Numbered from the stretch's first letter, positions 5,533 through 57,021 are shown. The stretch: DNA of 64,000 nt from Rhodospirillales bacterium (GCA_038143065.1 JAYQLI010000035.1:704001-768000); one strand, 5' to 3'. Numbers and translations: made by a program. The notes: a model not told the origin generated them from the letters alone.

Positions 5533-6284
5533 CTGAACATCGATATTGAAACCGCTGCCGTTATTGCACTTGCTTTTTTCATGGGCAGCCTTGTCAAGGG
5601 CGTGGCTGGTATCGGGCTCCCCTAGTAGCAATTCCAATACTTACTTTTGCAATGGATGTCCGGGATGCAACCCCCATGATTGTTGGGCCTGCAATCATCA
5701 CAAATGTCTTTCAAGTCATTAAGACAAGGCAGGCCCGTCTTCGATATAAAGAAATCACACCAATTATATTTGGTCTACTGATAGGAACATTTGGTGGAGC
5801 TTTGATCGCAGTTTCGGTCAATCCAAACGTGATGGTTGGTATATTGGGTTTTGTCATTCTCGCATTCGTTGCCTTTAGTTTTTCTGGATACATGCCGTCT
5901 ATTCCGCAAAAAGGGCGTCTGCAAATGGGCTTTGCAGCTGGCACGGGCACAGGATTAGTAGGAGGAATGACTGGGGTATTCGGGCCCGTTTTGGCAATCT
6001 ATACCCTCGCCCTCAAAATGCCCAAAGATGCTTTTGTTTGGGCTATGGGCGTACTCTTACTTCTTGCCTCATCTGGCCTTGGCATCTTCTATGCCACCCT
6101 GGGCGCCTTCCCTATCTGGGTTCTCATCGCATCTTTTGGAGCCATGCTGCCTTCTTATATAGGCATTGTTGCTGGAACTCGTTTACGCAAAATTGTTTCC
6201 GAAAAATTATTCAGGAACGTAGTTCTAAGCATTCTTGGCATTATCGCCCTGAAACATGTAGCGAGCGCTTTCGGATTAATTTAA
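5533..6284 (+). CDS. TauE/SafE (sulfite exporter family) membrane protein; frameshift near 5620
   Basis: N-terminal VKGVAGIGLP motif upstream of the listed ORF, GLVGGMTGVFGP in the second repeat. Apparent CTG start behind GAGGA. Confidence 0.75.
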
Positions 6285-6432
6285 TCAAATTTACCAGTGA
6301 CGCAGTCGTCACAAGATGCAATGATACAGCTTGTGCGTGGAAAAAAACACGCTTGAACAGAAAAGATCCGCCGTCTACATTTCTTTGATTGTAGGTGTAA
6401 GGAAAATGAAAACTCAACGGGGAGGAAACCCA

Positions 6433-7596
6433 ATGAACCGCTCAATCGCCGCTCTTGTGGCAAGCGTTTCAGTAGCAGCCTTTGCAGGCACTGCAATAGC
6501 AGACGGCCATGCTCCAAAGCTGCCACGCTCGAACGTTTGGACCGCATATGATCTTGGCTCTTCTGGCTACGCTGAAGCCGCTGGTATCGCAAACGCATTC
6601 CAGAAGAAATATAAAGCACGTGTAAGGATTATCCCATCAGGAACGTCAATTGGCCGACTTCTGCCACTGACTACAGGTAAAGCTCAGTATGGCTACCTCG
6701 CTAACGAGGCATTCTTCGCCGCTGAGGGAACCTATGACTTCGCAGTTCCTGAATGGGGGCCACAGGACCTTCGCATCATTACAGGCCGCCTCGCTAATGT
6801 GGGTGTTGCGACAGCGAAAGATGCCGGGATTAAGGAACTCTCCGACCTGAAAGGCAAACGGATGGGTTTCGTGAAGGGTAATCCTTCCGTAAATGTCAAA
6901 AACGATGCTTATCTTGCATTTGGTGGGCTGACACGTGATGACATTCAGGTAGTCTGGTTTGGTAGCTATGGCGCAATGAAAACTGCGCTTATCGCCGGTC
7001 AGCTTGATGCCTTTGGATCGGTCACAACTTCAGCTAACATGCGTGAGATCGAGGCGAGCCCTCGAGGCTTGCATTGGCCTAATTTCTGGCCAGACAACAA
7101 AGCTGGTTGGAAGGCTGTTACAGACGTGGTGTCCTTTGCAGCCCCAGGTAAAGAAACCCGTGGAGCAGCTCTTTCTGACGCAAACCCAGCCTGGCTCGTT
7201 GGATATCGCTATCCAATGATCACGACTTATGCTCGGACTTCAGAAGATGATGCTTATAATATGATCAAAGCCCTTGATATGGCGTTTGATGCTTACTCCA
7301 AGACCACCGCATCATCCTTTAACTGGGAAGTTGCCAAGGCTGGTCGTCCACCTTACGACACCCCTGCTCATGACGGTGCAATCCGTTACATGAAAGAAAA
7401 AGGGTATTGGCAGCCAGAAGATCAAGCTTGGCAGGACAATCGTCTCGCTCGCTTGAACGCGGTAATCGAGACCTGGGAAAATGGGCAAGCTGCTTTTGCT
7501 GATATGCGCACTGCAGAAAGAGCCAAAGGCAACAAGGTCGGCAATGATGCCTGGGCTGATTTCTGGACAGATTATCGGGCTAAAAACCTAAAATAG
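6433..7596 (+). CDS. TAXI-family TRAP transporter solute-binding subunit
   Basis: GGAGG RBS, signal peptide MNRSIAALVASVSVAAFAGTAIA, WTAYDLGSSGY, PAHDGAIRYMKEKG. Confidence 0.8.
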   Translation: MNRSIAALVASVSVAAFAGTAIADGHAPKLPRSNVWTAYDLGSSGYAEAAGIANAFQKKYKARVRIIPSGTSIGRLLPLTTGKAQYGYLANEAFFAAEGTYDFAVPEWGPQDLRIITGRLANVGVATAKDAGIKELSDLKGKRMGFVKGNPSVNVKNDAYLAFGGLTRDDIQVVWFGSYGAMKTALIAGQLDAFGSVTTSANMREIEASPRGLHWPNFWPDNKAGWKAVTDVVSFAAPGKETRGAALSDANPAWLVGYRYPMITTYARTSEDDAYNMIKALDMAFDAYSKTTASSFNWEVAKAGRPPYDTPAHDGAIRYMKEKGYWQPEDQAWQDNRLARLNAVIETWENGQAAFADMRTAERAKGNKVGNDAWADFWTDYRAKNLK

Positions 7597-7620
7597 TCTA
7601 CTAGTTCAGGAAAACCTTCG

Positions 7621-7657
7621 AAAGGGCTGTCTTTATGGGCAGCCCTTTCTTCTTTTA
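7621..7657 (+). terminator. Rho-independent terminator
   Basis: AAAGGGCTG(TC)-loop-(GG)CAGCCCTTT followed by a T-rich tail just after the TAXI gene. Confidence 0.8.
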
Positions 7658-9888: not shown

Positions 9889-10923
9889 ATGCGCGCCCTC
9901 CTCTGCCGTGATTGGCGACCTTTCAACGACCTTGAAATTGTTGAGCTTCCCGATCCCATACCACCCAAAAAGGGGCTTCGCATACGCGTAATGGCCGCCG
10001 GCGTAAGCTTTGCGCAAAGCCTCGTCGTTCAAGGGAAATATCAAAGGAAACCGCCCCGCCCCTTCACACCGGGGTCCGAAGTTGCCGGAATTGTGGAAGC
10101 TGTTGGGAGCGAGGCAAGTCGTTTTAAAGTTGGCGATAAAGTATTTGCTGTTATCGACTGGGGCGGGCTAGCGGAGAAAGCTGTAGCTCTGGAGGTAAAT
10201 ACTTATTCGATTCCAGAAGGTCTCGATTTTGCCAAAGCTATTTCAATTACTAATTCTTATGGAACATCAGCCGCAGCTTTAATGTGGCCAAATCTTCTTA
10301 ATGTTCAAGCGGGCCAAACTCTTCTAGTCCACGGGGCAGCTGGCGGTGTTGGCATCGCAGCTGTGGAGATTGGTAAGATATTAGGTGCAATTGTAATTGC
10401 GACAGCAAGTTCTGATGAAAAACTTGAAATAGCGAAAAGTCACGGTGCCGACCACGTGATCAACTACAGTAATACATCATTCAGAGATGTCGTTATGGAT
10501 ATCACAAATGGCTTTGGAGTGAATGCTTGTTACGATCCGGTTGGGGGTGATGTTTTTACCCAGTCGTTAAGATGTATGGCTGTGGAAGGCCGAATTATGC
10601 CCGTTGGATTTGCAGGAGGAGATATTCCACAAATCCCAGCAAATATACTATTGGTTAAAAATATAACTGTGACCGGCCTTAACATGGGGTATTACATGGG
10701 GTGGAGCCCATATGACGCACGCTACGAAAGCGAGAGCAAAGTTAGGCCTATTATGGAGAAGTTGGCCCAGTGGACGGTGACAGGAGATATCCGCCCAGAG
10801 TTAGCAGGCGCTTTCCATCTAGAAGATTTCCGAGATGCTATGTCGATGGTTTTAGGTCGAAAAGCCATTGGCCGCGTAGCTATAGCTTTTGATGAGGAAG
10901 CCACCAGATTGGGCTTAGAATAA
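9889..10923 (+). CDS. NADPH:quinone oxidoreductase family (MDR) protein
   Basis: GKYQRKP..PFTPGSE, HGAAGGVG, DPVGG, NILLVKN. Confidence 0.9.
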   Translation: MRALLCRDWRPFNDLEIVELPDPIPPKKGLRIRVMAAGVSFAQSLVVQGKYQRKPPRPFTPGSEVAGIVEAVGSEASRFKVGDKVFAVIDWGGLAEKAVALEVNTYSIPEGLDFAKAISITNSYGTSAAALMWPNLLNVQAGQTLLVHGAAGGVGIAAVEIGKILGAIVIATASSDEKLEIAKSHGADHVINYSNTSFRDVVMDITNGFGVNACYDPVGGDVFTQSLRCMAVEGRIMPVGFAGGDIPQIPANILLVKNITVTGLNMGYYMGWSPYDARYESESKVRPIMEKLAQWTVTGDIRPELAGAFHLEDFRDAMSMVLGRKAIGRVAIAFDEEATRLGLE

Positions 10924-10969
10924 AGATCGGCACAAGTCCCACCGAAAACATAAGAAAAAGGGTAAAGAC

Positions 10970-11713
10970 ATGAAACGATTCATCGGAAAAGTTGCAATTG
11001 TTACAGGCGGAGGGAATGGGATTGGCGCTGCCATTGTCGAACGTTTATCCGATGAAGGCGCTTCAGTGCTAATTGTCGATAGGGAATTGGAATCAGCAAA
11101 AGAAATTGCTCAGAAAACAGGGGCCTCCGTCTTGGCGGGAGATGTATCTGAACCAAACACCGCGCAAAATGCCGTTTCAACGGCCCTCTCCAACTATGGC
11201 AAAGTTGATGTTGTAGTTTGTAATGCCGGAATAACAGACCGTGCCCCTTTCCTTGAAATGACACCAGAATTTTTTGAAAAAGTCATAGGCATAAACTTGA
11301 AGGGAGCATTTTATTTTGCCCAAGCGGCCGCGCGTCAAATGGTGGCTCAGGAAACTGGAGGCCGCATTATTGCGGTTGCTTCTAACTCAGGGATTTTTGG
11401 TGGCCGTGGACGCGCTGCCTACGGAGCAAGCAAGGCTGGTCTGATAAATTTGGTTCAGACAATGGCAATCGAACTTGCCGAGCATGGGATAAACGTCAAT
11501 GCAGTTGTACCAGGACCAACTAAGACGCGAGTCACTAAAACTGCAGATTTACCACCTAGCGTTCAAAGTAGGATGCCTTTGCATAGGTTTGGATCGCCTC
11601 AGGAAATTGCTGCGGTAGCCGCGTTTCTGGCATCTGATGACGCAAGCTTTGTAACAGGCCAGGCTTACGCTGCCGACGGTGGGTATACAACTGCTGGGAT
11701 GATGGAAGGTTAA
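10970..11713 (+). CDS. SDR family oxidoreductase
   Basis: TGGGNGIG, NAG, YGASK. Confidence 0.9.
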   Translation: MKRFIGKVAIVTGGGNGIGAAIVERLSDEGASVLIVDRELESAKEIAQKTGASVLAGDVSEPNTAQNAVSTALSNYGKVDVVVCNAGITDRAPFLEMTPEFFEKVIGINLKGAFYFAQAAARQMVAQETGGRIIAVASNSGIFGGRGRAAYGASKAGLINLVQTMAIELAEHGINVNAVVPGPTKTRVTKTADLPPSVQSRMPLHRFGSPQEIAAVAAFLASDDASFVTGQAYAADGGYTTAGMMEG

Positions 11714-11748
11714 GCTGCGCAATATTGTCAATTTTAGTCGTCTAACGC

Positions 11749-11777
11749 TTGGCTAGATGAGCATTTTCGGCTAAATA
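11749..11777 (+). promoter_or_regulatory. Putative sigma70 promoter of the gltBD leader
   Basis: TTGGCT-N17-TAAATA, with GC before the -10 element as is typical of alphaproteobacterial housekeeping promoters. Confidence 0.4.
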
Positions 11778-11791
11778 ACCTCTCCCCGCGC

Positions 11792-11955
11792 AGATGGGTG
11801 CTGGAGCTGAAACGCCCCGACCCAAGGCTAGCGGTTCGATTATAGCATGATGGTGCCAGAAAAAGTGAGCGCCTCGCTATGTGGATCGCACGGGGAAACC
11901 GTGGGTTTCAGATTGCCCCATCCTTCTATATCTCAAGGGCTTACCCCTTGATTTT
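11792..11955 (+). ncRNA. Candidate structured cis-regulatory leader RNA upstream of gltB
   Basis: Nested complementary segments GATGGG/CCCATC, CTGAAAC/GTTTCAG, CGGTTC/GGATCG, TATAGC/GCTATG, GGTGC/GCGCC, CACGG-GGAAA-CCGTG, then TCAAGGG/CCCTTGA + TTTT. Family not recognised. Confidence 0.45.
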
Positions 11956-12014
11956 GGCTGGCTGGGTTCTAGGAAATCTTAGTATTGAATTTTATTTTTT
12001 AAGGACGATGGCCT

Positions 12015-15000
12015 ATGTCTAAGACGCCTGAAGCCCAGGGGCTTTATGACCCCAGGAATGAGCATGACGCATGTGGTGTCGGCTTTGTGGCGGATGTCAA
12101 AGGCCGAAAATCCCATGAAATCGTTCAAGAAGGCTTAGAAATTCTTCTAAAGCTAGATCACAGAGGTGCTGTTGGCGCTGATCCACTAGCCGGCGATGGC
12201 GCAGGCCTTTTATCCCAAATTCCTGATCAGTTCTTCAGGAAGCAGCAACTTGGGTTCACACTCCTCCTGTCGGTTCATACGCAGTCGGCCAAATCTTTCT
12301 TCCTCAGGACAAAAAGAATTCTTTGGCGCTGGAAAAACTTGTTGAATCTCATTGTCGCGATGAGGGATTAACTGTGTTGGGATGGCGAGATGTCCCGGTC
12401 AATAGCGAAGGACTAGGGGTCTCCGTTATCAAGACTGAGCCAACAACAAAGCAAATCTTTGTAACCGCTGATTATGCAAAGGATGATCAGGATAAATTCG
12501 AGCGAAAAGTTTTTGTTGCTCGCAAGTCCGTTGCAAACAAAATTTCTGGTGAGAAAATGCCCGGATTTGAGGATTTTTATATTTCCTCGATGTCTTCGCG
12601 GACCATTACCTATAAAGGAATGCTACTCGCCGGTCAGGTAGGCACATATTTCCTAGATCTCCAAGATCCTGATTTCACCTCCGCCTTAGCTTTGGTGCAT
12701 CAGCGTTTCTCGACCAACACATTCCCCTCTTGGCGGCTTGCACATCCCTATCGCATGGTCTGCCATAATGGCGAGATAAATACCCTTCGCGGAAACGTAA
12801 ACTGGATGGCAGCCCGTAAGCACGCTATGACATCTGATTTACTAGGCAGCGATTTAGAAAAATTATGGCCAATAATTCCAGAAGGTCAGTCAGACACTGC
12901 TTGTTTTGATAATGCTCTCGAACTGCTTGTCATGGGTGGATATTCCCTGGCGCATGCTATGATGGTGTTAATTCCAGAGGCATGGTCCGGTAACCCTTTA
13001 ATGGATGAGAAAAGACGTGCGTTCTACGAGTACTACGCTGCGGCTATGGAACCATGGGATGGCCCTGCTGCAGTAGCATTCACGGATGGACGACAAATCG
13101 GAGCCACCTTGGATAGGAATGGTCTCCGTCCGGCGCGTTATCTCGTAACGACAGATGATAAAGTTGTGATGGCATCGGAGATTGGTGTCCTTGACATACC
13201 ACCTGAGAAAATAGCACGGCAGTGGCGTCTACAGCCTGGAAAAATGTTCCTCATTGATACGGATGAGGGAAGAATTATTGATGACGCAGAACTCAAAAAA
13301 GAGCTCTCCGAGGCTAGAAATTACAAGGAATTATTATCTAAGACCCAATTCAAACTGAGTGAATTAGCGGGGAGCAAGGTGTCTGCTCCTACCTCGAATA
13401 TTCCGCTGATCGATAGACAACAAGCGTTCGGATATTCGCAGGAAGACCTGAAATTTTTCTTGGAACCAATGGCGGCTGAGGGAGATGATCCAATTGGATC
13501 AATGGGTAAAGATACGCCAATTTCTGTGCTATCTGATAAATCCAAGCTGCTTTACACATATTTCAAGCAAAATTTTTCTCAGGTGACCAACCCACCAATC
13601 GACCCAATCAGGGAAGAATTGGTGATGTCCCTGGTATCTATGATTGGTCCCCGACCCAATTTGTTTAGCGTTGATGATGGTGACGATCCACATTGGCGTC
13701 TCGAAGTTAGCCAGCCAATTTTAACGAATGAGGATCTCGAAAAGATCCGTAACGTTACAGACCTTGTCGGTGACGCATTCCGCACTGCAACCCTTGATGC
13801 GTGCTGGCCAGCTGACCACGGCTTAGGGGGTATGGCAGCTGCAATTTCTCGCCTTCAAAGTGAAGCGGAAAAGGCCGTTCGTGACGACCATCAGAATATT
13901 TTAATTATTTCTGATCGCAGCATGAGCCAGAGCAGTATTCCAATACCTGCTCTCTTGGCTTGTTCAGCCGTTCATCATCACCTTATACGCAAGGGCTTAC
14001 GCACAGAAACTGGACTCGTAATTGAAACTGGTGAAGCGCGCGAAGTTCATCACATGTGTGTTCTGGCCGGATATGGCGCTGAAGCAATAAACCCCTACCT
14101 GGCATTTGACTCTATCCGTGACAGGCTGGACGAATTGCCAGAGGGAGTGAATGAAGAGAAAGCGTTTAAGAATTACATCAAAGCTTTAAACAAAGGCATG
14201 CTTAAAGTGATGTCCAAGATGGGCATCTCTACATATCAATCGTATTCTGGAGCTCAGATCTTTGATGCAATTGGGCTCTCTTCAGAGTTCATTGAAGAAT
14301 ACTTTACTGGAACGGCAACAACCGTTGAGGGCATTTCTGTAGAGGAAGTGGCTAGAGAAACAGTTGAACGCCACGCCCGTGCGTTTAGTGATGACCCAAC
14401 CCTGGAACGGATGCTTGAAGTTGGTGGGGAATACGCTTATCGCATGCGTGGAGAACGTCACGCTTGGAACCCAACAAGCGTGAGGGCTTTACAACATGCA
14501 GTTCGTGGAAATTTACCCAACGAATATAAGACTTTTGCAGACTCAATTAATGAGCAATCTCGCAATCTTCTTACTCTCCGTGGTTTATTTGACTTTAAAT
14601 GGTCTGAACAGCCAATCCCATTAGATGAGGTAGAACCCGCGTCTGAGATAGTTAAGCGGTTCTCTACCGGGGCAATGTCATTTGGATCCATCAGTCGAGA
14701 GGCGCACACTACCCTAGCAATTGCGATGAATCGGATGGGTGGTAGATCTAATACTGGCGAAGGCGGTGAAGAACCGGATCGATTTAAGCCCATGGCAAAC
14801 GGCGACAGTATGCGGAGCCGCATTAAGCAGGTCGCAAGTGGCCGATTTGGCGTCACAACAGAATACCTAGCTAACGCCGATGACATTCAGATAAAGATGG
14901 CGCAGGGCGCCAAGCCAGGTGAAGGCGGGCAGTTGCCCGGTCATAAGGTGGATCGGAATATTGCTGCAGTGCGCCATTCCACTCCAGGAGTTGGCCTGAT

Positions 15001-16605
15001 TTCACCCCCTCCTCATCATGATATTTACTCTATTGAGGACTTGGCGCAGCTCATTCATGATCTTAAGAATGCTAATCCAAGTGCCCGTATTAGTGTAAAA
15101 TTAGTGTCAGAGGTTGGGGTTGGCACGGTCGCAGCCGGTGTGTCGAAAGCGCGCTCAGATCATGTCACAATTTCAGGTTTTGAGGGCGGCACAGGCGCCA
15201 GTCCAATAACCTCCCTCACACACGCAGGGAGTCCTTGGGAAATTGGTCTAGCAGAAACGCACCAGACCCTCGTACTAAACGGTTTGCGCGGCAGGATTGC
15301 TGTACAGGTCGATGGTGGTCTGCGAACCGGTCGCGACGTAGTTATCGGTGCAATTCTGGGCGCAGACGAATTTGGTTTCTCAACAGCGCCATTGATTGCT
15401 ATGGGTTGTATAATGATGCGCAAATGCCATCTGAACACATGCCCAGTCGGCGTAGCAACTCAAAACCCTGAACTCCGAAAGAAGTTCACAGGTACGCCAG
15501 AAAACGTAATTAACTACTTCTTCTTCTTGGCTGAAGAGATGCGCGAGATTATGTCTAAGCTTGGCGTTCGCTCCATGAACGAACTGATTGGCGCTACTGA
15601 ATTCCTAGATATGCGCCAGGCAGTGGAACAGTGGAAGGCAGACGGCGTAGACCTTCGCCGCCTAATATTTAAGCCAACCGCTGCAGATGGAGTTGCTACT
15701 TACAACTGTGAGACCCAGGATCACGAACTAGATAAAGCCTTAGACCAAAAATTGATTGCGGCAGCAAAGCCGGCAATCGACAACGGGGAAGCTGTTGTAA
15801 TTAACACGGAAGTCAGAAATGTTAACCGGACAGTAGGAGCTATGTTGTCTGGCCAGCTCGCAAAGAAATACGGACACGCCGGGCTTCCAGAAGATACGGT
15901 AGCCATCAAGGCCTCTCAGGAGTTGGTGGGCAAAGCTTTGGAGCATTCCTAACTCGTGGTGTTTCTATCGAGCTAGAAGGTGTTGCGAATGACTATGTTG
16001 GAAAAGGACTTTCTGGGGGTCGCATAGCAATATTCCCACCTAAAAAATCACCTTACGCACCCAAAGAAAACATGATCATCGGCAATACTGTGCTTTACGG
16101 AGCGATTGAAGGTGAATGCTTCTTTAGAGGTGTAGCGGGCGAGCGGTTCTGCGTGCGGAACTCCGGAGCGTTTGCAGTAGTTGAGGGCGTAGGCGACCAC
16201 GGTTGTGAGTACATGACCGGCGGCTGTGTTGTGGTATTGGGTCCAACCGGTGTTAATTTCGCAGCCGGAATGTCAGGTGGCCTTGCTTATGTGCATGACC
16301 CTGATGGGATTTTTGCTGATCGTTGCAATAAAGCGATGGTATCACTTGAAAAAGTTGAACCTGCGAAAAATGCAATGACACCACACGACTTCAAAGGTGA
16401 CATGCTCGATCATGATGAAATGCGTCTTAAAACGTTGATTGAGCGCCACGCCCACTACACTGATAGTGATGTTGCTAAGTCATTACTCGCACGATGGGAA
16501 GAAGCTCGTGGGGAGTTCGTCAAGGTAATGCCAGACGACTACCGACGCGCTTTGTTAGAAATGAAGTCTGATCAGACCGAGACCAGGAGCGAAACCCATG
16601 GGTAA
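12015..16605 (+). CDS. gltB: Glutamate synthase large subunit; frameshifts near 12265 and 15912
   Basis: [10 protein letters not shown]-terminus, [56 protein letters not shown]. Confidence 0.97.
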
Positions 16606-18024
16606 GCCAACAGGTTTCTTAGAACTAACTCGTTCCGAAAGAGGGTATCTGCCCGTTGAGGATCGACTAAAAAACTACAACGAATTCGTAGTTCCACTCT
16701 CTGAGAGCGAAGTTCAGAGCCAGGGGGCACGTTGTATGGATTGCGGAATACCGTTTTGCCACAACGGCTGCCCCGTAAATAATCAAATACCTGACTGGAA
16801 CGACCTTGTTTACGAAGGCGAATGGCAGAAGGCTTTAGTAAACCTGCACTCTACGAACAACTTTCCTGAATTTACTGGGAGAATATGCCCTGCTCCGTGC
16901 GAGGAGTCTTTGCGTTCTGAACATCAACGACAACCCAGTTGCTATTAAAACAATTGAATGCGCTGTCGTTGATAAAGGATTTGAAAACGGCTGGATTACA
17001 CCAGAAATTCCTGAACAGAAAACAGGCAAACGTATTGCGGTTATTGGATCAGGTCCAGCTGGCCTTGCAGCCTCTCAACAGTTAGCAAGAGCCGGTCATG
17101 ATGTCGTTTTATTTGAAAAGAATGATCGAATTGGCGGCTTACTACGTTACGGCATTCCTGACTTTAAAATGGAAAAGCATCTAATCGATCGGCGTATGGA
17201 ACAGATGTCTGCAGAAGGCGTGGAATTCCGAACAGGTGTTAATGTTGGCGTGGATATCAAAGTCGACGAACTAAAAGCCAGTTTTGATGCTGTTGTATTA
17301 ACGGGCGGAGCAGAAGCACCGAGAGACCTTCCGGTAGATGGAAGAAAACTAGACGGTGTTCATTTTGCCATGGAGTTTTTACCTCAGCAAAATAAGCGGG
17401 TTGCTGGCGATACCGTGCCTGATGATTTATCTATCTTGGCAGATGGTAAAAAAGTGCTCGTTATTGGCGGTGGTGATACCGGGTCCGATTGTATCGGAAC
17501 GTCCAATAGGCACGGTGCAACCGGCGTAACTCAGCTCGAAATTATGCCAAAACCACCCGTCCAAGAAGATAAACCGATGGTGTGGCCAGATTGGCCGATT
17601 AAACTACGCACGTCTTCTAGCCACGACGAAGGGGCTGAACGGAAGTTTGCCGCGTCCACCCTCGAATTCCAGGGTAAAGACGGTAAGGTAACAGGGGCAA
17701 CCATCTCCGAAGTAGAATGGACAAAAACTGGCCCGCAGCCCATCAAAGGGACAGAGCAACAAATTGATTGTGACCTTGTATTGCTTGCGATGGGCTTTGT
17801 TGGCCCGGTAAAACAGGGCCTAATTGAGGAATTAGGTGTTGATTTAGATCAGCGCGGCAATGTTTTTGCAGACGATTTTTCTTACAGAACTTCTGTAGAC
17901 AAGGTTTTTACCGCCGGTGACATGAGGCGTGGTCAATCCTAGTTGTTTGGGCCATACGTGAAGGACGGCAATGTGCTCGGGCCGTTGATGAGTACCTAAT
18001 GGGTACGTCTAAACTCCCCGTTAA
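16598..18024 (+). CDS. gltD: Glutamate synthase small subunit; frameshifts near 16910, 17940 and 18018
   Basis: [49 protein letters not shown](L)[10 protein letters not shown]. Confidence 0.95.
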
Positions 18025-20882: not shown

Positions 20883-23016
<2,134 letters not shown>

Positions 23017-23171: not shown

Positions 23172-24379
23172 ATGCCAGGTCCCTTTAAAGGCCTAAAGGT
23201 CGTAGATCTCACCACCGTAGTAGTAGGACCCTATTGCACACAAATGCTCTCTGACCTTGGTTGCGAGGTAATTAAAGTTGAAGCCCCAGATGGGGATTTA
23301 ACACGTCTCACCGGACCGTCACGCAATCAGGGCATGACGTCTAATTTTATGCAGCTTAACCGCAATAAACGCAGCATTGTATTAGACCTAAAAACGGAGA
23401 CTGGCGCAAAAGCAATGCAAGATCTGCTTCGAGATGCTGACGTCTTTGTTCATAATATGAGGCCAGAACCTTTAACCCGTCTTGGGTTTGATTACCCCAA
23501 GGTCAAAGAGATTAATCCAGAAATTATCTATTGTAACATTTGGGGATTTGGAGTTGATGGGCCTTATGCGGGCCGAGCTGCCTTTGATGACATAATCCAA
23601 GGTGTTTCGGGCCTCGTAGCACTTGAAGGATATGGTGATAAGCAACCGCGCTACGTTCCAATGCTCATTGCGGATAAAACCACAGGTGTCTTTGCCGCCC
23701 TAGCAATCTCTGCAGCCCTTTATCACAAGCTGGCAACAGGCGAAGGTCAGGAAATTGAAACACCGATGTTCGAGTGCATGACTTCATTCACCATGATTGA
23801 GCACCTATCTGGTGAAGGATTTTTGCCAGCCTTGGGAGCAGTAGGCTCTGAACGACACGCGAAACCAATGCGGTGGCCGATGCGAACAAAAGATGGCTGG
23901 GTTTGCATATTGGCTACGAGCGACAAGCATTGGCGTGGTTTAACAGAAGTGGGAAATCGCCCTGAGTTGACCGACGATCCGCGTTATAAAACCCGCCCTG
24001 CACGTCTAGAACGGCGCGAGGAAGTTATAGCTCTAACAGCAGAAATGATCCTCACCAGAAAACAAAAGACCTAGTTGCAGAACTCGCTGAAGCAGGTGTC
24101 CCCTGCATGCAAATTAATTCTCTAGATCAGGTGGTAAGTGATGAACACTTAAATGATGTTGGGTTTTGGCATGAAATGGACCATCCGAGCGAGGGACGTA
24201 TTCGGATGATGGCTCCGCCGTATAAACTGACAAAGACGCCACCGTCTATTCGAACTGGGGCACCAAGGTTTGGCCAGCATACTGCCGAAGTTTTAAGAGA
24301 GCTTGGCTACGGCGAAGAAGAAATCACTGCCATGCTAAAAGCGGGTGCTGCAGTACAGGACAACCGCAATAGCCAGTAA
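23172..24379 (+). CDS. CaiB/BaiF family III CoA transferase; frameshift near 24060
   Basis: GPYCTQMLSDLG.EVIKVE, NRNKRS, AFDDIIQ, GQHTAEVLRELG. Confidence 0.9.
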
Positions 24380-24384
24380 TTCCA

Positions 24385-29752: not shown

Positions 29753-30346
29753 CTAAGACTTTGTACTGAGCTCTTTTAAACGCTGCTGCATTTCTTCCAT
29801 TTGGCGCTGCAGCTCCTCAATGCCCCCTTCAGCATGTTTAGGTTCATTTTGCTGTTTAGGTTGTGGCTGCATTGCATTTGGCCAGAACGCTTTCATAGCC
29901 TGATCAAAAGCCGCGACGTTCCGTTTTGTCATTTCCTGCATCGCGTCCATTGACGCTCCCACAGGAAAAACACTTCCAAAGGTCCCTTCCATTGTTTTCC
30001 GAACATCATTCTGATGTTCTTCAAACCAAGAAGTCATGTGCTCGAGATATTGAGGCATCATCCAGCTCATACCGTCGCCATACATTGCTATCAGCTGTCT
30101 TAGGAATTTAATTGGCAATAAATTCCCATCGGCCTGCTCAGCCTCTACAAGGATCTGTGTTAGAACTGAACGAGTTAAATCTTCGCCGGTTTTTGCATCC
30201 AAAACAACGAAATCTATATCGTCTGCAATTAGAACTCTTAGATCATCTAGAGTGACGTAAGAGCTTGAATCCGTATTATATAGGCTGCGATTTGCTTATT
30301 TTTTTATAATTATTGGTGCATTTTGATCGCGCGATTGAGCTGCCAT
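29753..30346 (-). CDS. phaR: Polyhydroxyalkanoate synthesis repressor PhaR; in-frame TAA at 30296-30298
   Basis: IIIKK*ANRSLYNT.SSSYVTLDDL (family motif IKKYANRRLYNT), DAKTGEDLTRSVLTQI, LLPIKFLRQLI.MYGD. Confidence 0.85.
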
Positions 30347-30386
30347 CTTATCAACCTTTTCTGCTACGCTATAAGCGTCAACAGAA

Positions 30387-30398
30387 TGCTGCATCGCA
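30387..30398 (-). promoter_or_regulatory. PhaR box between phaR and the phaC-like gene
   Basis: Minus strand TGCGATGCAGCA, about 40 bp upstream of phaR. Confidence 0.65.
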
Positions 30399-30487
30399 AA
30401 AAGATGCTGCTTGGTCAAGTAAAACGCATCAAAACACTTCAGAGATTAGTTGACGCGGCCCATCATAATAGCGTTTTCATATAAATA

Positions 30488-37399: not shown

Positions 37400-38479
37400 T
37401 CAGTTATCAGCTGCAAGGCATGTTTTGATAGATGAAGCCATATTTCTCAGCAGCTGAAAATACATATTCGGCCCGCTCGCTATTGATGCTCCCAGAGGGT
37501 CAAGCACGCCGGTTTTCGCGCCACTGCCCTCACTCAAAGTTTTAACTAACTTTGGTTCAAATTGAGGCTCTGAAAAAATACAGGCGGCGCCCAGAGACAT
37601 AATTTTCTCACGTAACTCACTAACACGTTGAGCACCTGGGAGTACTTCTGGTGATACTGTTATGGAGCCAACTGCGGAGACACCAAATCGTTGCTCAAAA
37701 TAATGATATGCATCGTGAAATACTATGAAACTCTTGTCTTGGACCGGTTCAAGTTGATCTCGTAACTCTCTAACAAGAGAGTCAAGTTGACTCCTCAATT
37801 TGCGAGCGTTTTCTTTATAAACTGATGCATGCGCTGGGTCGGCTTTTACCAAAGCTTCTTCAATTTCGTGAACTAACGCTTTTGCGTTGACCGGATCTAA
37901 CCAGACATGGGGATCAATTTCCCCGTGGCCATGCTCTTTGTCTGCATGTTTTTCATGGTCGTTGTGCCCGTGATCATGCTCTTTGTCTGCATGTTTTTCA
38001 TGGTCGTTGTGCCCGTGATCATGCTCTTTGTCTGCATGTTTTTCATGGTCGTTGTGCCCGTGATCATGCTCTTTGTCTGCATGTTTTTCATGGTCGTCGT
38101 GTCCATGATCATCAAACATACCGCCCTCACGGAATTTAATCCTCTTAAGACCGTGGGCGTTGAGAAGTTTTATAATTTCGGCGCTGTCTGAAATATTTTT
38201 GATAGGCTTTTTCAAAAATGTCTCTATATCATCGCCCATCCAAAATACTAATTTAGCATCTTGCAGTTTTCTCGCTTCAGAAGGTTTGAGGGAGTAAGTA
38301 TGCGGACTGCTAGCCCCATCAACAATAAGATAAGGAGTGCCAACACCGTTCATTACGGAAGACACAAGTGAGTGCACAGGCTTGATGGATGTAACAACAC
38401 CAATATCAGCTTTAGCCCCTGAGAAACTGATTGGGCAAAATACCAAAAGTATTACGAGTAATCGTTTTAAGGGCATCAT
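37400..38479 (-). CDS. znuA: Zinc ABC transporter substrate-binding protein with expanded His-rich loop
   Basis: VVTSIKPVHSLV, GASSPHTYSLKPS, DPHVWLDP, FIVFHDAY.YFE, FSEPQF. Confidence 0.95.
   Translation of the reverse strand: MMPLKRLLVILLVFCPISFSGAKADIGVVTSIKPVHSLVSSVMNGVGTPYLIVDGASSPHTYSLKPSEARKLQDAKLVFWMGDDIETFLKKPIKNISDSAEIIKLLNAHGLKRIKFREGGMFDDHGHDDHEKHADKEHDHGHNDHEKHADKEHDHGHNDHEKHADKEHDHGHNDHEKHADKEHGHGEIDPHVWLDPVNAKALVHEIEEALVKADPAHASVYKENARKLRSQLDSLVRELRDQLEPVQDKSFIVFHDAYHYFEQRFGVSAVGSITVSPEVLPGAQRVSELREKIMSLGAACIFSEPQFEPKLVKTLSEGSGAKTGVLDPLGASIASGPNMYFQLLRNMASSIKTCLAADN
37931..38110. repeat. Four tandem 45-bp in-frame repeats within znuA
   Basis: Unit ATGCTCTTTGTCTGCATGTTTTTCATGGTCGTTGTGCCCGTGATC: three identical copies plus one with three mismatches; encodes DHGHNDHEKHADKEH. 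Confidence 0.97.
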
Positions 38480-42607: not shown

Positions 42608-44191
42608 TTATTCTTGTACGGATAGTCCTTCGTTGGCTAGGGCGCTTTTAATAAGTTCTATTGTTTCATCCACACCATATAGGGCAATAAAGCTACCCAT
42701 TCGCGGACCGGATGATTGTCCTAAAAGCACTTCATAGAGAGCTTGGAACCATTCTCGCAGATTTTCATACCCATGCGTTTTACCAACATGATAGACAGCA
42801 TTTTGCAACATCTCTGCAGACCGATCTTCCGCAGAAGCAAGTCTATCACTGAGATCAGCCATAGCGGCGCGTTCTGCAGCACTTGGAGCCCGATAGGCTT
42901 TTTCAGGTTTCACAAAGTCTCGATAATAAGCCAATGCATACCCTACCAAGCGATCCAACATTGGTGCTGTCTCAGGAGTAAGCTCCGGCGAATACCGCCC
43001 AATAAAACCCCATAGTGTTGCTTTGTCCTCTGCGTTGCAGACAGCCGCTAGATTCAAAAGAAGAGAGAAAGAAAAGTCTCCCTCTGTCGCCGGAGGGTTA
43101 CCACCATGAATATGCCATGATGGATTATCTAATTGTTTCTCTGGCTCCTGATTCCCAAAGCCCGCTAAATGTTGGCGATATTCGTCAACCGCCCGCGGTA
43201 TAACATCGAAATAAAGTCGTTTTGCGGCGGTAGGCTTTTGAAACATAAACATCGACAAGCTTTCAGGTGGCGCATACGCAAGCCATTCCTCCACAGAAAG
43301 GCCATTACCTTTTGATTTTGAAATTTTTCCACCTTCGTGATCGAGGAATAATTCGTAGGTGAATCCTTCAGGAGGTTTTCCGCCTAGGATCCTACAAATT
43401 GAGGAAGATAACTTGACACTCTCGATCAAGTCTTTTCCCGACATTTCATAATCAACGTCAAGGGCGAACCATCGCATGGCCCAGTCAGCTTTCCATTGCA
43501 GCTTGCAGTGCCCACCTGTGACAGGAGTTTCAATCAGTTTTCCGTTACTGGGATCAACATAAACGATCGTACCCGCATCTGGCCGTACTTCTTTTGCTGG
43601 TACTTGAAGAACCTCGCCCGTTTCTTCTGAAATTGGGAGAAATGGGCAATAGGTCTCCCTGCGCTCTTGGCCAAGCGTCGGAAGTATTACTTTCATGACT
43701 TTGTCAAACTGACGAAGCATCGCCATCAGAGCCTGGTCAAACTCTCCAGATTTGTAACATTCAGTGGACGATTTGAATTCATACTCAAATCCAAATTCGT
43801 CAAGAAATGCCCTCAGACGCGCATTATTATGAGCCCCAAAACTATCATGAGTTCCAAATGGGTCAGGTACTTGAGTTAGAGGTTTGTTTAGGTGTTTGGA
43901 TAACATCTCTTTATTGGGAACATTATCCGGAACCTTTCGCAGGCCATCCATATCGTCTGAAAAAGCAAAGAGCCGAGTAGGAATGTCTGATAATTCTGCA
44001 AAAGCACGCCTAACCATTGAGGTTCGTGCCACTTCACCAAAGGTACCAATATGAGGCAATCCCGATGGACCATAACCGGTTTCAAATAGAGCATAGCCTT
44101 TTTCAGACTTACTGTGCTCCATTCGCTTGAGCACTTTTCGTGCTTCTTGAAAGGGCCAAGCTCGAGCGTTTTCAGCATTTGCGTTCGGCAT
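42608..44191 (-). CDS. lysS: Lysine--tRNA ligase, class I
   Basis: [33 protein letters not shown]. Confidence 0.96.
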
Positions 44192-44444
44192 GGATTAGGA
44201 GATCCCGAGTTAGTGTCAAAGATCGGTTCCGAATAGCGACACACTGTTTCGGGAAAAACCGATACCATCGAAGGATTTATTAGTCGGAAGATGATATGTT
44301 GCCAAGCTGTACCGAAAAATAGTCTTCATCCTCATCTCAAACCCTCGAACCTTAAGATTAAATATTTCTCAAAAACTTGCCCTTCTGGTTCGTCCCAGCC
44401 AAATTGCATGTTAGATTCCGTATACCAGCGGAGTGGAGGCCCTG

Positions 44445-47400: not shown

Positions 47401-47923
47401 GGCTGCAGCCCGATACGGGTATAAGCTTATGGCTTATAAAGATGAGTACGAGGTTGCGCGCCTCTATTCTGATCCAAAATTCCGGGAGCGCTTAGAGGCT
47501 CAATTCGAAGGTAATTTTGAGCTGCGCTTTAATCTTGCACCACCTCTCATGTCTAAGATTGATCCTGTATCTGGAGAGCCAATCAAAAAAGAATTCGGCC
47601 CATCCATGGAAAAGTGGTTCCGGCAGCTCGCGAAGCTGAAAGCCTTGCGTGGTACTAAGCTGGATATCTTTGGTCGCACGGAAGAGCGCAAGCGCGAAAG
47701 GGCATTAATTAGCGAGTATTCACAGCTGGTTGATAAGATTACAGACGAACTTACGAAAGAAAACTATCAGTTTGCTGTCGGTCTTTTGAGCATCCCCGAA
47801 CACATCCGAGGGTATGGACACGTCAAACTGCGCAACCTCGACATTGCTAAAGCAGAAGAAACCCGCCTTCTGGAAGCCTTTGACAACCCAGATGCTGTGA
47901 AGCTTACCCAGGCTGCCGAGTGA
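44445..47923 (+). CDS. Fused indolepyruvate:ferredoxin oxidoreductase family protein; frameshift near 44980
   Basis: SGYRGSPLG, WYGKGPGVDR, FCSGCPHN, GDGTYNHSG TPP motif, CEGCGDC...C, GIGGTGV, AYKDEYEVARL. Confidence 0.92.
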
Positions 47924-48639
47924 TGAAAACACTAGATGTTCAAGTATGGCGAGGTAATAAAAACGGAAGTTTTGAAAAATTCGAAGCTCCTGCTCAAGAA
48001 AATCAGACTGTCCTCGATGTAGTGACTTGGATACAGCGGAATGCTGATCCTAGCTTATCTTATAGGTTCGCGTGCAGAGTAGGCATGTGTGGATCATGTG
48101 CAATGACTGTTAACGGCCGGCCGCGCTGGACCTGCCGCACCCACGTCTCACGTGTTGCAAAAGATGGAAAATTAAAAATAGAGCCACTATTAAATCTTCC
48201 AATAATCAAAGATCTAGCTAGCGACCTTAAACCATTCTTTGATAAATGGAATGCAGCAAGAGGTACCTTTGAAGCTGCAATAAAGAGAGAAGATCCTCTT
48301 ATACCAATCTCTCCAGATCAACCGGAACGAGCAGCTGCAAACGCGGCAATTGAATGTATTAACTGTGCCGTCTGCTACTCAGCCTGTGACATGGTTAGTT
48401 GGAAGCCATCCTATTTGGGCCCTGCAGCACTAAATAGAGCATGGGCAGCATGGAACGATGTACGAAATGAAAATCGTTTGGATGTTTTAAAAGCTGTGTC
48501 AGATGATGCTGGATGCCATAACTGCCATAGTCATCAATCTTGTTCAGAACATTGCCCAGTTGGCCTGAATCCAACGATGTCTATTGCCGGTCTCAAACGG
48601 GCAACTTCAAAAGCCTTATTGAAAGGCGATCTGAAGTGA
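47920..48639 (+). CDS. Succinate dehydrogenase/fumarate reductase-like iron-sulfur subunit
   Basis: CRVGMCGSC...C (2Fe-2S), CINCAVCYSAC, CHSHQSCSEHCP. Confidence 0.9.
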   Translation: MMKTLDVQVWRGNKNGSFEKFEAPAQENQTVLDVVTWIQRNADPSLSYRFACRVGMCGSCAMTVNGRPRWTCRTHVSRVAKDGKLKIEPLLNLPIIKDLASDLKPFFDKWNAARGTFEAAIKREDPLIPISPDQPERAAANAAIECINCAVCYSACDMVSWKPSYLGPAALNRAWAAWNDVRNENRLDVLKAVSDDAGCHNCHSHQSCSEHCPVGLNPTMSIAGLKRATSKALLKGDLK

Positions 48640-48968
48640 TAACTGCGAAATTATATTTAATTCAGCGAATATCAGCTCTGTTAATGGCTCCGCTTGTAAT
48701 TGCTCATCTCATTGGAATTATCATGGCGGTGCAAGGGGGTTTAACAGCAGACGAAATCTTAGGCCGAACACAAGGTTCCCTTGGGTGGATGTTCTTTTAT
48801 GGTGCCTTTGTGATTCTAGTCGCTGTTCATGGTACTGTTGGTCTTCGTTCAATTTTAATTGAATGGACACCGATTGCTAATCGTATTGTTGACGTCTTAA
48901 CTGCGTTTTGGCTCATTTCAGCGCTAATTCTTGGGCTTCGAGCCGTAGTAGCGGTAACATGGTTGTGA
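48636..48968 (+). CDS. SdhD-like small membrane anchor
   Basis: QRISA, HGTVGLRSILIEW, three TM helices; GTG overlaps the upstream stop. Confidence 0.75.
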   Translation: MITAKLYLIQRISALLMAPLVIAHLIGIIMAVQGGLTADEILGRTQGSLGWMFFYGAFVILVAVHGTVGLRSILIEWTPIANRIVDVLTAFWLISALILGLRAVVAVTWL

Positions 48969-49306
48969 TGAAGCCCACCAGAAAACATTCAGGATATTGG
49001 GCCTTTTTAGTCCACCGCTTGTCTGGTCTCGGGCTTGCCCTCTTTCTTCCATTACATTTCCTTGCTCTCGGTACCGCCATTCAAGGCGCAGCCAAATTGG
49101 ACAGTTTTCTAGAATGGACCGAAAATCCAATAGCTAAATTTGCAGAGATAATTCTCGTGATACTTTTATCTGCTCATTTAACTGGTGGCCTGCGTCTGCT
49201 TGCTCTCGAGTTTTTACCATGGAGCGAGAGGCAAAAAACTTGGATATCCATTGGAGCTGGTATCTCCCTCGCAGCAGGCCTCGCAATGCTTTTTAATCTG
49301 ATTTGA
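48968..49306 (+). CDS. SdhC-like (cytochrome b556-type) membrane anchor
   Basis: HRLSG, HLTGGLRLL, three TM helices. Confidence 0.78.
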   Translation: MKPTRKHSGYWAFLVHRLSGLGLALFLPLHFLALGTAIQGAAKLDSFLEWTENPIAKFAEIILVILLSAHLTGGLRLLALEFLPWSERQKTWISIGAGISLAAGLAMLFNLI

Positions 49307-54984: not shown

Positions 54985-56177
54985 ATGCAGAAAATTCCTT
55001 GGACCCCGCTTTTACTCACAATGCTCACCCAAGCTGCGGCTACAATGGCGGCATATACCTTATCCACTGCCTCTCCTTATATTGCTCCCGACTTAGGCGT
55101 TGAAAATGAGGATGTCGCACAACTAGTAGCTGTCGTCTATTTATTGGGGGCTATGTCAGCGATGACAGTGCCCCCTTTATTCATCGCTTTGGGGGCATGA
55201 CAATTTCCATAGCCATCTGTGTTGCAACCGCCGCAATGCTATCTATTGCATCGTTTGCCTCTTCCATTGGCATACTGACGTTAGGCGCCCTCAGCTTGGG
55301 CGTTTTATACGGGTCTACTGCTCCATCAAGCAGCCATGTGCTAGCACCTCTTACATCTGAAAAAAGAAGGAATTTTGTATTTTCGGTTCGACAAATTGGC
55401 GTACCTCTGGGAGGAATTCTTGGAGGATTATTAGTACCACCATTGATCTTGATTGGCGGTTGGCGGATTGCATTTCAGGCCCAACTCATATTTGCACTGG
55501 TGATGATATTTGCAATTTTTCTTGTCCGTTCTCGATATGACCACGGACGCGACCGTAACCGAAATGTTTGGAGCTTAAGTGGACCTATTCGGCTTGTGGG
55601 ACTTCTGCGCGAACTACCCGAGATAAGACCTCTCGCAATTGCCGCTTTTGTGTATTCGGGTGCTCAACTGTGTTTTGGAGCATTCATTGTTACACAACTT
55701 GTCCGGGTCTATGGTCAGGACGGATATCACTTTGCCAGTGCCGTCGCACTGGTGGCATTTCAATTATCTGGGATAACTACGCGAATAGTGCTTGGTGTAA
55801 TTGCTGACTCATGGATATCGGCTCGCTGGCTTCTTGTGGCCCAAGGTTTTTTAATGACACTCTCCGCTATAGTTGCTGCAGGTTATGATTCAAGCTGGCC
55901 CTATTGGCTAATAGTAATTAATTGTGCTCTCGCTGGAGCAACAGCAAGCGGTTATACAGGACTTGCTTTTGCAGAATTTGTGCGTATGGGAGGCCCCAAG
56001 CGGACCGCTGAAGCAACTGGCTTAGGAACAGCCCTAATGTTCTTTGGTGTAGCTGCAATGGCCCCTCTTTTTCGTCTTGGGATTGATATCTTTAACGGTT
56101 ACGCCATCCCATATTTTTTGGTCGCTGCGCTAACAGCAGCCAGTGCATTACTTCTAGCAATCGGAACACGCCGATGA
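54985..56177 (+). CDS. MFS transporter domain 2; frameshift in the C-run near 55172
   Basis: MQKIPW...; adding one C gives FIHRFGG joined to 55197..56177 (FSVRQIGVPLGG, RIVLGVIADS). Confidence 0.75.
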
Positions 56178-57021
56178 CTTTTGCTAAACTCACCCCTCAA
56201 TTGTTAATAGATAATGATCACATGGTTGGCTCTTTGTTTGTTAAAGAGTGTCGACCACTGAACCCAACCCAATTGACCACTCCAATTCTTATGGTGCATG
56301 GATCAAATCATGGATGGTGGGCTTGGCGGGTTTGGCAGCCTTTCTTTGCTGCTGCCGGATGGCCAACATACGCATTATCTCTTAGAGGTCATTATGGCTC
56401 TGCCCCGGTCAACGAAAATGATTTCTTAAACCTTAGCATGTCTGACTATGTCGAAGACGTTGCTTCAGTGGCGCGCTGGCTTGGCAAGCCTCCAGTTCTT
56501 ATAGGCCACAGTCTGGGTGGTATAGTAGTTCAAAAGGCGGCAGAGACGATATCTTCAGCAGCTATCGCTCTTATTGCTTCTATTGGTCCGTCAGCCATTG
56601 GTCGCCAAAGACCTGGACCGCCTCCCCCATGGACAAGCCTGTTTTTCCTAGCAAGGCAGAAGCACTCGAACGTTGGATGTACGACCCATGGCCTGAAGAA
56701 CGCTTTGATCAATTTTACGAATGTCTAACCCCTGAATCTCCAGGGGTATTGGCCACATCTGGGACAGGATTAACCGACGTCAATGCAGAATTAATAAAAT
56801 GTCCTGTCCTTTGTGTAGGAGGCTCAGAAGACAAAAGCTATGTCCCAAAAGCGGAAAAACTTGCAAAAATCTACAAAGCTGATTGGTTTGAGCAACCCGA
56901 CGCAGGACATGACATGATGTTAGAGTCTGCATCTTTGGATGTCGCACAGCAAATTAATCAATGGCTGATTGGAAAATTAGGCTTAGAACGGTCATCAAAA
57001 ATCCAAGCGATTAAGCCATAA
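56174..57021 (+). CDS. Alpha/beta hydrolase; frameshift near 56625
   Basis: MVHG, SLRGH, GHSLGG nucleophile, GGSED, AGHDMMLE. Confidence 0.85.

Follow-up and report, generated by a model that had tools for sequence, protein, structure and literature searches.

A structured spacer upstream of gltBD in an uncultured alphaproteobacterium is a single-sequence candidate for a new sRNA or leader RNA

Introduction

What occupies the 301 nt between a short-chain dehydrogenase/reductase (SDR) gene and the glutamate synthase genes gltB-gltD in an uncultured alphaproteobacterium: a short RNA with an end of its own, a leader that acts on the genes behind it, or DNA signals whose fold is accidental? Cyanobacteria, Firmicutes and Negativicutes are known to control nitrogen assimilation through RNA; for Alphaproteobacteria, a search of an open-access library found no description of a gltB leader RNA. 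The original prediction described a highly structured leader with a terminator-like hairpin before gltBD, and proposed either a cis-regulatory RNA sensing nitrogen status or an independent sRNA. Here, that proposal is followed up computationally in the whole 64-kb stretch of DNA that surrounds the spacer, referred to below as the window, and in gltB loci of other genomes.

Results

Genomic setting of the spacer

The window comes from an alphaproteobacterium that has not been cultured. For its class I lysyl-tRNA synthetase, the nearest 90%-identity cluster carries the name 'MAG: Alphaproteobacteria bacterium', holds 88 member sequences and shares 98% identity with it; other clusters lie at 90% and ~80% identity, and proteins bearing the names Rhodospirillales, Rhodospirillaceae and Kiloniellaceae share ~70%. 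Relatives of this enzyme are present in many metagenome contigs. The G+C content of the window is 46%. All four genes of 9889–18019 are carried on the + strand, and gltD comes after gltB in gene order; both were assigned by tblastn with the intact GltB and GltD proteins of three other loci (L012, L016 and L048). The SDR gene is a possible source of read-in transcription across the spacer.

The gap, put at 300 bp in the original prediction, measures 301 nt from the SDR stop (11713) to the gltB ATG (12015), and intergenic gaps are indeed mostly tiny, with a median of 22 nt in a crude ORF map. The size of the SDR-gltB gap is unexceptional, because 15 of the 71 gaps in this map reach at least 150 nt, and it ranks eighth among them. 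In other genomes, the gap upstream of gltB is at least 200 nt in 26 of the 65 measured loci among the matches listed, and gaps of 200–460 nt are common. Both counts favor an explanation without any RNA function, in which the spacer combines an SDR terminator with gltBD promoter and operator DNA and the fold arises by chance in a GC-rich stretch.

Sequence quality bears on the details of the fold. The gltB and gltD frames are broken four times, with two frameshifts each (near 12243–12265, 15886–15910, 16905–16911 and 17939). Protein matches flanking each break are 60–75% identical to intact GltB and GltD, and two of the examined frameshift sites lie at short homopolymers; the breaks therefore look like assembly error and not gene decay. 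Overlapping same-strand ORF pairs or triplets with the look of split genes are also present at 117–859, 5652–7596, 21905–23016 and 42608–44268, and further split-looking ORF groups at 47920–49306, 56174–57021 and 61071–62469. The assembly probably carries indel errors, and given homopolymer indels, the bulges of helix P1 and the length of the U-run described below may be wrong. Elsewhere in the window, a 45-nt unit is repeated 4.2 times with 96% match at 37922–38112 within a ZnuA-family zinc-binding-protein gene (37400–38479, − strand), where it encodes the His/Asp/Glu-rich 15-residue repeat HDHGHNDHEKHADKE.

Predicted anatomy of the spacer RNA

Every element named in the original prediction is present at its position with the correct sequence, and RNAfold reproduces the named helices in both the MFE and the centroid structures of 11784–11960 (MFE −62.6 kcal/mol) and of 11793–11922. 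The features are collected in Table 1.

Table 1. Features of the SDR-gltB region, with positions counted from the first nucleotide of the window
Feature	Position	Strand	Basis or remark
SDR gene (247 aa), context	10970–11713	+	ORF list; Pfam adh_short_C2, E 2.1e-64
Optional 5' stem-loop, only with read-in from the SDR gene	11716–11792	+	z −1.12, 27/200 shuffles as good; not significant alone
Promoter-like TTGGCT-N17-TAAATA (TTGGCT 11749–11754, TAAATA 11772–11777)	11749–11777	+	Weak match
P1 5' strand, GAUGGG(U)GC, partner 11915–11922	11793–11801	+	MFE and centroid folds
P2 5' strand, CUGAAAC, partner 11905–11911	11807–11813	+	MFE and centroid folds
P3 long arm, 59-nt imperfect hairpin, 23 pairs (5 G-U), purine-rich apical loop	11831–11889	+	
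P4 small hairpin, CACGG-GGAAA-CCGUG, 4–5 pairs	11889–11903	+	MFE and centroid folds
3' strands of P2 (11905–11911) and P1 (11915–11922)	11905–11922	+	
Unpaired C/U-rich linker CUUCUAUAUC, P1 to terminator hairpin	11923–11932	+	Unpaired in MFE and centroid
Terminator-like hairpin TCAAGGG-CTTAC-CCCTTGA plus TTTT	11933–11955	+	Consensus scan, folds
AT-rich spacer with Shine-Dalgarno-like AAGGA (12001–12005) ahead of gltB ATG	11956–12014	+	Sequence
gltB codons 5–8 (CUGAAGCCCA), predicted partner of 11902–11911	12028–12037	+	Read-through mRNA fold
gltB-gltD (glutamate synthase large and small subunits), downstream genes	12015–18019	+	tblastn

As far as folding predictions can show it, this anatomy is real, with the helices at the sites listed and specific for the + strand. 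G-U pairs had been taken to favor a sense-strand RNA, and this holds: 5 of the 42 core pairs are G-U, all of them within P3, and the core folds at −51.9 kcal/mol (z −3.2) on the + strand versus −42.3 kcal/mol (z −1.58) on the − strand, whose fold lacks a defined centroid. The strand asymmetry together with the five G-U pairs argues against a fold produced by chance. P3 alone has an MFE of −23.2 kcal/mol.

Fold stability relative to chance

The significance of the fold depends on where its boundaries are drawn. With the boundaries of the core as first proposed, none of 300 shuffles folds as well as the real sequence, and P3 alone reaches a z of −3.41, with 1 of 200 shuffles as good; the P3 value in particular speaks against chance. 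Values for longer segments are −2.11 for 11714–11955 (4 of 200 shuffles as good) and −1.37 for the full 177 nt that run from the putative start as far as the terminator (19 of 200). When the shuffles are free to offer their best 130-nt window, z is −1.33 and 15 of 150 are as good; in this test three blocks were shuffled separately, and a 10-nt grid was applied to the real sequence and the shuffles alike. Because z falls to −1.33 once the choice of boundaries is allowed for, the statistical support for the fold is marginal, and the values of −1.37 and −1.33 fit a chance fold. The same is true of simple arithmetic, by which a 7-bp perfect helix is expected ~0.5 times within 130 nt.

A scan of the whole window places the region high but not at the top. 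The best of the three grid windows that overlap it (starts 11776–11826) lies at −2.14 SD after G+C correction and ranks 43rd of 2555 on the + strand, and many coding windows fold equally well or better, again as expected by chance. Compared with other intergenic DNA, the spacer is modestly distinctive. No other of the 15 intergenic regions that measure 150 nt or more reaches its 130-nt GC (0.59 vs 0.44–0.55), and none of the corresponding 30 strand-regions has a lower GC-corrected MFE residual (−2.84 SD, + strand; next −2.61), a combination that counts against chance. Fairly stable folds are also found in two other large intergenic regions, 30203–30487 (− strand, −2.61 SD) and 1719–2001 (− strand, −2.34 SD), and the large intergenic region at 24075–24384 has raised G+C (0.49, peak 0.55).

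Promoter and terminator signals

The promoter-like sequence at the 5' side of the structure was found as described, and its two hexamers match the consensus at 4/6 and 3/6 positions, the second without the T at position 6. Its standing as a promoter did not hold up to the same degree, as it falls below the sigma-70 thresholds and is unlisted in the scan of 11400–12400. No sigma-54-like site is present on the + strand of the spacer, even at 3 mismatches. Downstream of the hairpin (11956–12014, + strand), no gltB promoter passed the consensus scan, which misses the 11749–11777 hexamers too.

The terminator-like hairpin with its TTTT is confirmed before gltB, ending 59 nt ahead of the ATG. It has the features of an intrinsic terminator, with 7 pairs (4 G-C), a 5-nt loop and the tail TTTTGGCT, in which only 4 U are consecutive. 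The consensus scan of 11400–12400 returns the stem-loop at 11933–11951 as its one terminator-like site, versus 1.1 expected in shuffles of the same kilobase, and the terminator scan of the window is noisy, with 27 of its 31 matches inside genes. For an independent sRNA, the signals are a terminator-like hairpin that is present and promoter-like hexamers below the scan thresholds.

A canonical strong intrinsic terminator is present at 7620–7649 (+ strand), with an 11-bp stem and a T-rich tail, 24 nt past an NMT1-like binding-protein gene. Intrinsic terminators of this kind are therefore in use in this genome. The hairpin upstream of gltB lies 220 nt past the SDR stop, against 24 nt at 7620, which leaves ~200 nt of GC-rich sequence to explain and argues against reading the spacer as an SDR terminator beside a chance fold. 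If termination at 11955 were efficient, the gltB promoter would have to lie in 11956–12014.

Dependence of the helices on transcript length

Helix pair probabilities were computed for transcripts of differing starts and ends. In these predictions, P3 and the terminator hairpin (11933–11955) are the robust parts of the structure and P3 is its most robust element; in all contexts tried, the pair probability is 0.72–0.95 for P3 and 0.81–0.99 for the terminator hairpin. P4 is context-dependent, ranging between 0.02 and 0.96. The probability of P1/P2 varies with the 3' end of the RNA. With an RNA start at 11784 or 11714, it is 0.77–0.90 for 3' ends no farther than 11955, and 0–0.3 after at least 20 further bases. 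For P1 taken singly, the values are 0.78–0.88 up to that end and 0–0.2 in read-through RNA with these starts, and P2 follows the same pattern. With a start at 11650, inside the SDR gene, it is 0.60–0.66 with an end at 11955 and remains ~0.6 until the RNA passes 12020, beyond which it is 0.25–0.37. This behavior can be read in two ways: the loss of P1/P2 in longer transcripts is compatible with a chance fold, and helices that are probable with an end at 11955 but lost on read-through, next to a terminator that is always predicted, support a terminated RNA.

In the read-through mRNA, a predicted 10-bp helix between 11902–11911 and 12028–12037 displaces P2, and the MFE is −96.7 kcal/mol, versus −90.6 kcal/mol with the originally proposed structure enforced. 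Such an exchange, in which gltB codons 5–8 take over the P2 3' strand, would offer a leader a possible long-range switch.

A classical termination switch requires an antiterminator. In a thermodynamic search, the terminator 5' arm has no strong alternative partner before the 3' arm is made; the best partners are 3 pairs at a probability of 0.43 and 4 pairs with the P1 3' strand at 0.18. The terminator is still predicted when the P1/P2 5' strands are blocked. Mutually exclusive terminator and antiterminator folds, the hallmark of a transcription attenuator, are therefore not predicted thermodynamically, which counts against a classical termination riboswitch, and the comparison of the hairpin to an expression platform finds no support in these predictions.

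Known families, coding potential and copy number

Two findings that would have spoken against a new element, a known Rfam family and a dispersed repeat, were not obtained: Rfam 15 gives 0 matches in the whole window at the gathering score, and blastn-short returns only the self-match in the 64-kb window. At E values up to 10, the Rfam matches in 11650–12100 are only noise (a eukaryotic lncRNA fragment at E 3 and an archaeal snoRNA at E 9.1), which weighs against a leader, and none of 11 related gltB loci matched Rfam. A second copy of the core is absent, by covariance model, from the window and from 68 gltB loci among the matches listed, and none of the spacer was found in a plasmid collection searched in distant mode.

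Coding potential is similarly limited. The longest stop-to-stop frame in the region is 58 aa, and none of five frames tested reaches the Pfam cut-off, the best being PilM at E 0.013 (15.9 bits vs a cut-off of 25). For a 47-aa ORF, a search of 5.8 billion clusters gave no homologue, and a small protein gene was rejected on these grounds. The spacer ORFs of 33–47 aa on the + strand lack a preceding Shine-Dalgarno sequence and a run of Gln or Glu codons. A leader peptide for a ribosome-mediated attenuator was likewise rejected, as the 34-aa upstream ORF is without a Shine-Dalgarno sequence and without a regulatory codon run, a point against control of gltBD from a leader. ARAGORN finds 0 tRNA genes in the window, and Rfam is without a tRNA match. 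A tRNA-like remnant suggested by the T-loop-like GGTTCGATT was also discarded, since by eye the flanking bases form no 5-bp T-stem. In the window, the 68 loci and the plasmid collection, the spacer region is single-copy, non-coding and without a known family.

Comparison with known RNA elements near glutamate synthase genes

The glnA motif is a small three-stem fold of ~60 nt that occurs in cyanobacteria and marine metagenomes, and ppGpp riboswitches (ykkC subtype 2a) occur in Firmicutes. glnA RNA is placed upstream of nitrogen-assimilation genes, at times glutamate synthase (PMC2864571, PMC8632094). Like the candidate RNA of the spacer, the glnA RNA or glutamine riboswitch and the Downstream-peptide motif are, as described there, sense-strand RNAs before nitrogen genes. 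Unlike glnA RNA, the spacer has a core of 130 nt with a 59-nt arm, and it lacks a match to Rfam 15 at E up to 10.

The gltD motif (SRC-18-1) is described as a riboswitch candidate of Selenomonadales/Veillonellales (Negativicutes) with a proposed cis-regulatory role (PMC8632094). By that description it resembles the spacer in having a promoter predicted before it and a position directly upstream of a glutamate synthase gene (PMC8632094). It belongs to another phylum, however, and its hairpin is described as covering the ribosome site; the hairpin of the spacer, by contrast, ends 59 nt ahead of the gltB start and is followed by a U-run. It is by this published description that the spacer is set apart from the gltD motif (PMC8632094). 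For the ppGpp riboswitch, 15 of 105 examples in the account cited precede glutamate synthase genes, gltB among them (PMC6003355), and no ykkC-type Rfam match is present in the spacer. Within Alphaproteobacteria, an sRNA of ~100–200 nt with a predicted terminator is predicted in the gltB/SMc04029 spacer of S. meliloti, according to the entry in PMC2573895. Compared by description, this orphan-terminator candidate points away from gltB, whereas the candidate RNA considered here is sense with gltB. In SAR11, riboswitch-like nitrogen control is proposed for amt and amtB and not gltB (PMC3870248). The presence of RNA elements before glutamate synthase genes in other phyla, as far as these accounts describe it (PMC2864571, PMC8632094, PMC6003355), favors a leader.

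gltB upstream regions of other genomes

Relatives were sought by searching genome contigs with a 1209-aa GltB fragment, which yielded at least 601 stretches; among the matches listed, 80 loci have 54–78% amino acid identity, and 68 of these 80, from other genera, hold the gltB N-terminus. In a comparison of the spacer with these 68 loci, nhmmer finds none and blastn only two weak matches (L024, 67% over 72 nt, E 0.69 against all loci; L072, E 1.4). The lack of conservation in the 68 upstream regions among the matches listed counts against a leader. None of the 7 neighboring window proteins shows synteny in any locus among the matches listed, with only two SDR-like matches of 32–34% in one of them (L019). 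A single-sequence covariance model of the core, R1, finds only itself, all other matches having E >2 and lying away from gltB upstream regions. With filters off, R1 gives nothing >8.5 bits in the upstream regions of four Rhodospirillaceae-type loci (L073, L069, L064 and L001). Loci at 54–78% identity are too distant for leader alignment, so the missing similarity says little. A promoter similarity to L073, seen by eye as TTCGGCTAA followed by a C-rich stretch (21/31 identical, ungapped), was rejected because BLAST is silent on it, and a 7-mer match of this TTCGGCTAA type is expected ~1.7 times by chance in the locus set.

Conserved blocks of other kinds are present upstream of gltB in these genomes. 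Ten Novosphingobium- or Erythrobacteraceae-type loci (L012, L017, L034, L036, L037, L039, L040, L043, L047 and L049) share a ~90-nt block that contains TTGCAAAA. The block also holds a hairpin, and for 6 of its 16 predicted pairs at least one sequence has a compensatory change at both positions. The block, which reads TTCGCAGTTGCAAAA ... CGCGCAAC ... GAGTCGCGC, lies ~50–150 nt upstream of gltB and is possibly a leader element for this gene in Sphingomonadales. Rfam has no match in the three carriers (L012, L017 and L040) that were among the 11 scanned loci. A second arrangement, GCTTTTCTTTTG-N13-TAATGTCGC, is shared upstream of the gltB start by L066 (−171), L072 (−172) and L073 (−127), and L066 and L072 have a conserved long hairpin 3' of it.

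These lineage-specific blocks of other Alphaproteobacteria resemble the spacer in position (~50–170 nt upstream), sense orientation and presence of hairpins, but are without sequence or structure similarity to it. They indicate that lineage-specific gltB leaders are common and, with the compensatory changes in one hairpin, favor a leader here as well, raising the prior for function only slightly. In one further locus, 4674–9318 of L032 (Dankookia sp. P2, complete genome), the reading frame of gltB ends at 721 aa and the rest lies in a second ORF of 825 aa, so that this gltB looks split.

Discussion

The usual build of an sRNA, or of a terminated leader or 3'UTR-derived RNA, is a compact RNA followed by an unpaired linker and a terminator that forms regardless. 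We tentatively interpret the spacer as a lineage-specific terminated sense non-coding RNA of this build, be it an sRNA or one derived from a leader or a 3'UTR, at a probability of about 0.35. We infer transcription of the region, the start and stop of the RNA, and any function. The GC-rich part of the SDR-gltB spacer would be transcribed in sense as the 3' part of a short terminated RNA. P3 and P4 would be closed by P1/P2, which would bring the ends of the RNA together, and would be followed by the C/U-rich linker and the terminator at 11955. The RNA would be ~170 nt long if it started near 11784 from the weak promoter-like site, and would otherwise make up the final 240 nt of the SDR mRNA. 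In either case, expression of gltBD would rely on partial read-through or on a promoter within the AT-rich 60 nt after 11955, and the terminated RNA would not be a ligand-switched terminator.

This interpretation is supported by P3 (z −3.41), by the + strand core (z −3.2) and its G-U pairs, by the peak GC and fold among 15 large spacers, and by the response of P1/P2 and the terminator to transcript length. It is weakened by the marginal z values, the rank of 43 of 2555, the lack of similarity in 68 loci, hexamers that stay below the scan, and the 4-U tract.

A spacer without RNA function, holding only an SDR terminator and the DNA signals of gltBD, is nearly as likely as the terminated RNA and, like it, is held at less than even odds. 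The shuffles with free boundaries, the coding windows, the ordinary size of the gap and the fate of P1/P2 in longer transcripts all suit it. It accounts less readily for the strand asymmetry, for P3, for the position of the spacer among its large intergenic peers, and for the distance of the hairpin from the SDR stop.

A cis-acting leader of gltBD, riboswitch or attenuator, seems unlikely. Its RNA would start near 11784, and P1–P4 would sense nitrogen status, with glutamine, glutamate, 2-oxoglutarate, ppGpp, a protein or an sRNA as candidate signals; the signal would set the frequency of termination at 11933–11955 or access to the ribosome site. The arrangement is suggestive, as a promoter-like site, a multi-helix domain and a terminator-like hairpin stand in sense 59 nt before a nitrogen operon. 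The missing antiterminator, the Rfam result and the upstream regions of the 68 loci argue the other way. The anatomy suits an independent sRNA no less well than a cis-regulatory leader.

In the most specific form of the leader hypothesis, P1–P4 would be the aptamer of an undescribed riboswitch class that senses nitrogen status (glutamine, 2-oxoglutarate or ppGpp) on the gltBD leader of a probably marine lineage and acts by P2-3'/codon 5–8 re-pairing or through terminator efficiency instead of a classical antiterminator; we regard this as quite improbable. That the region is what remains of a decayed gene, a remnant resembling a tRNA or a gene for a small protein, to which the coding-like GC, the T-loop resemblance and the many broken frames of the assembly might point, is hardly credible given the ARAGORN, frame-length (at most 58 aa), Pfam (0/5), homologue and Rfam results above.

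For the terminated sense RNA that we favor, it is reasonable on the present predictions to regard the spacer as a candidate, based on one sequence, for an sRNA or leader of a new family, and not yet as a riboswitch candidate in the strict sense. If real, that family would be associated with glutamate synthase in a lineage of uncultured Alphaproteobacteria.
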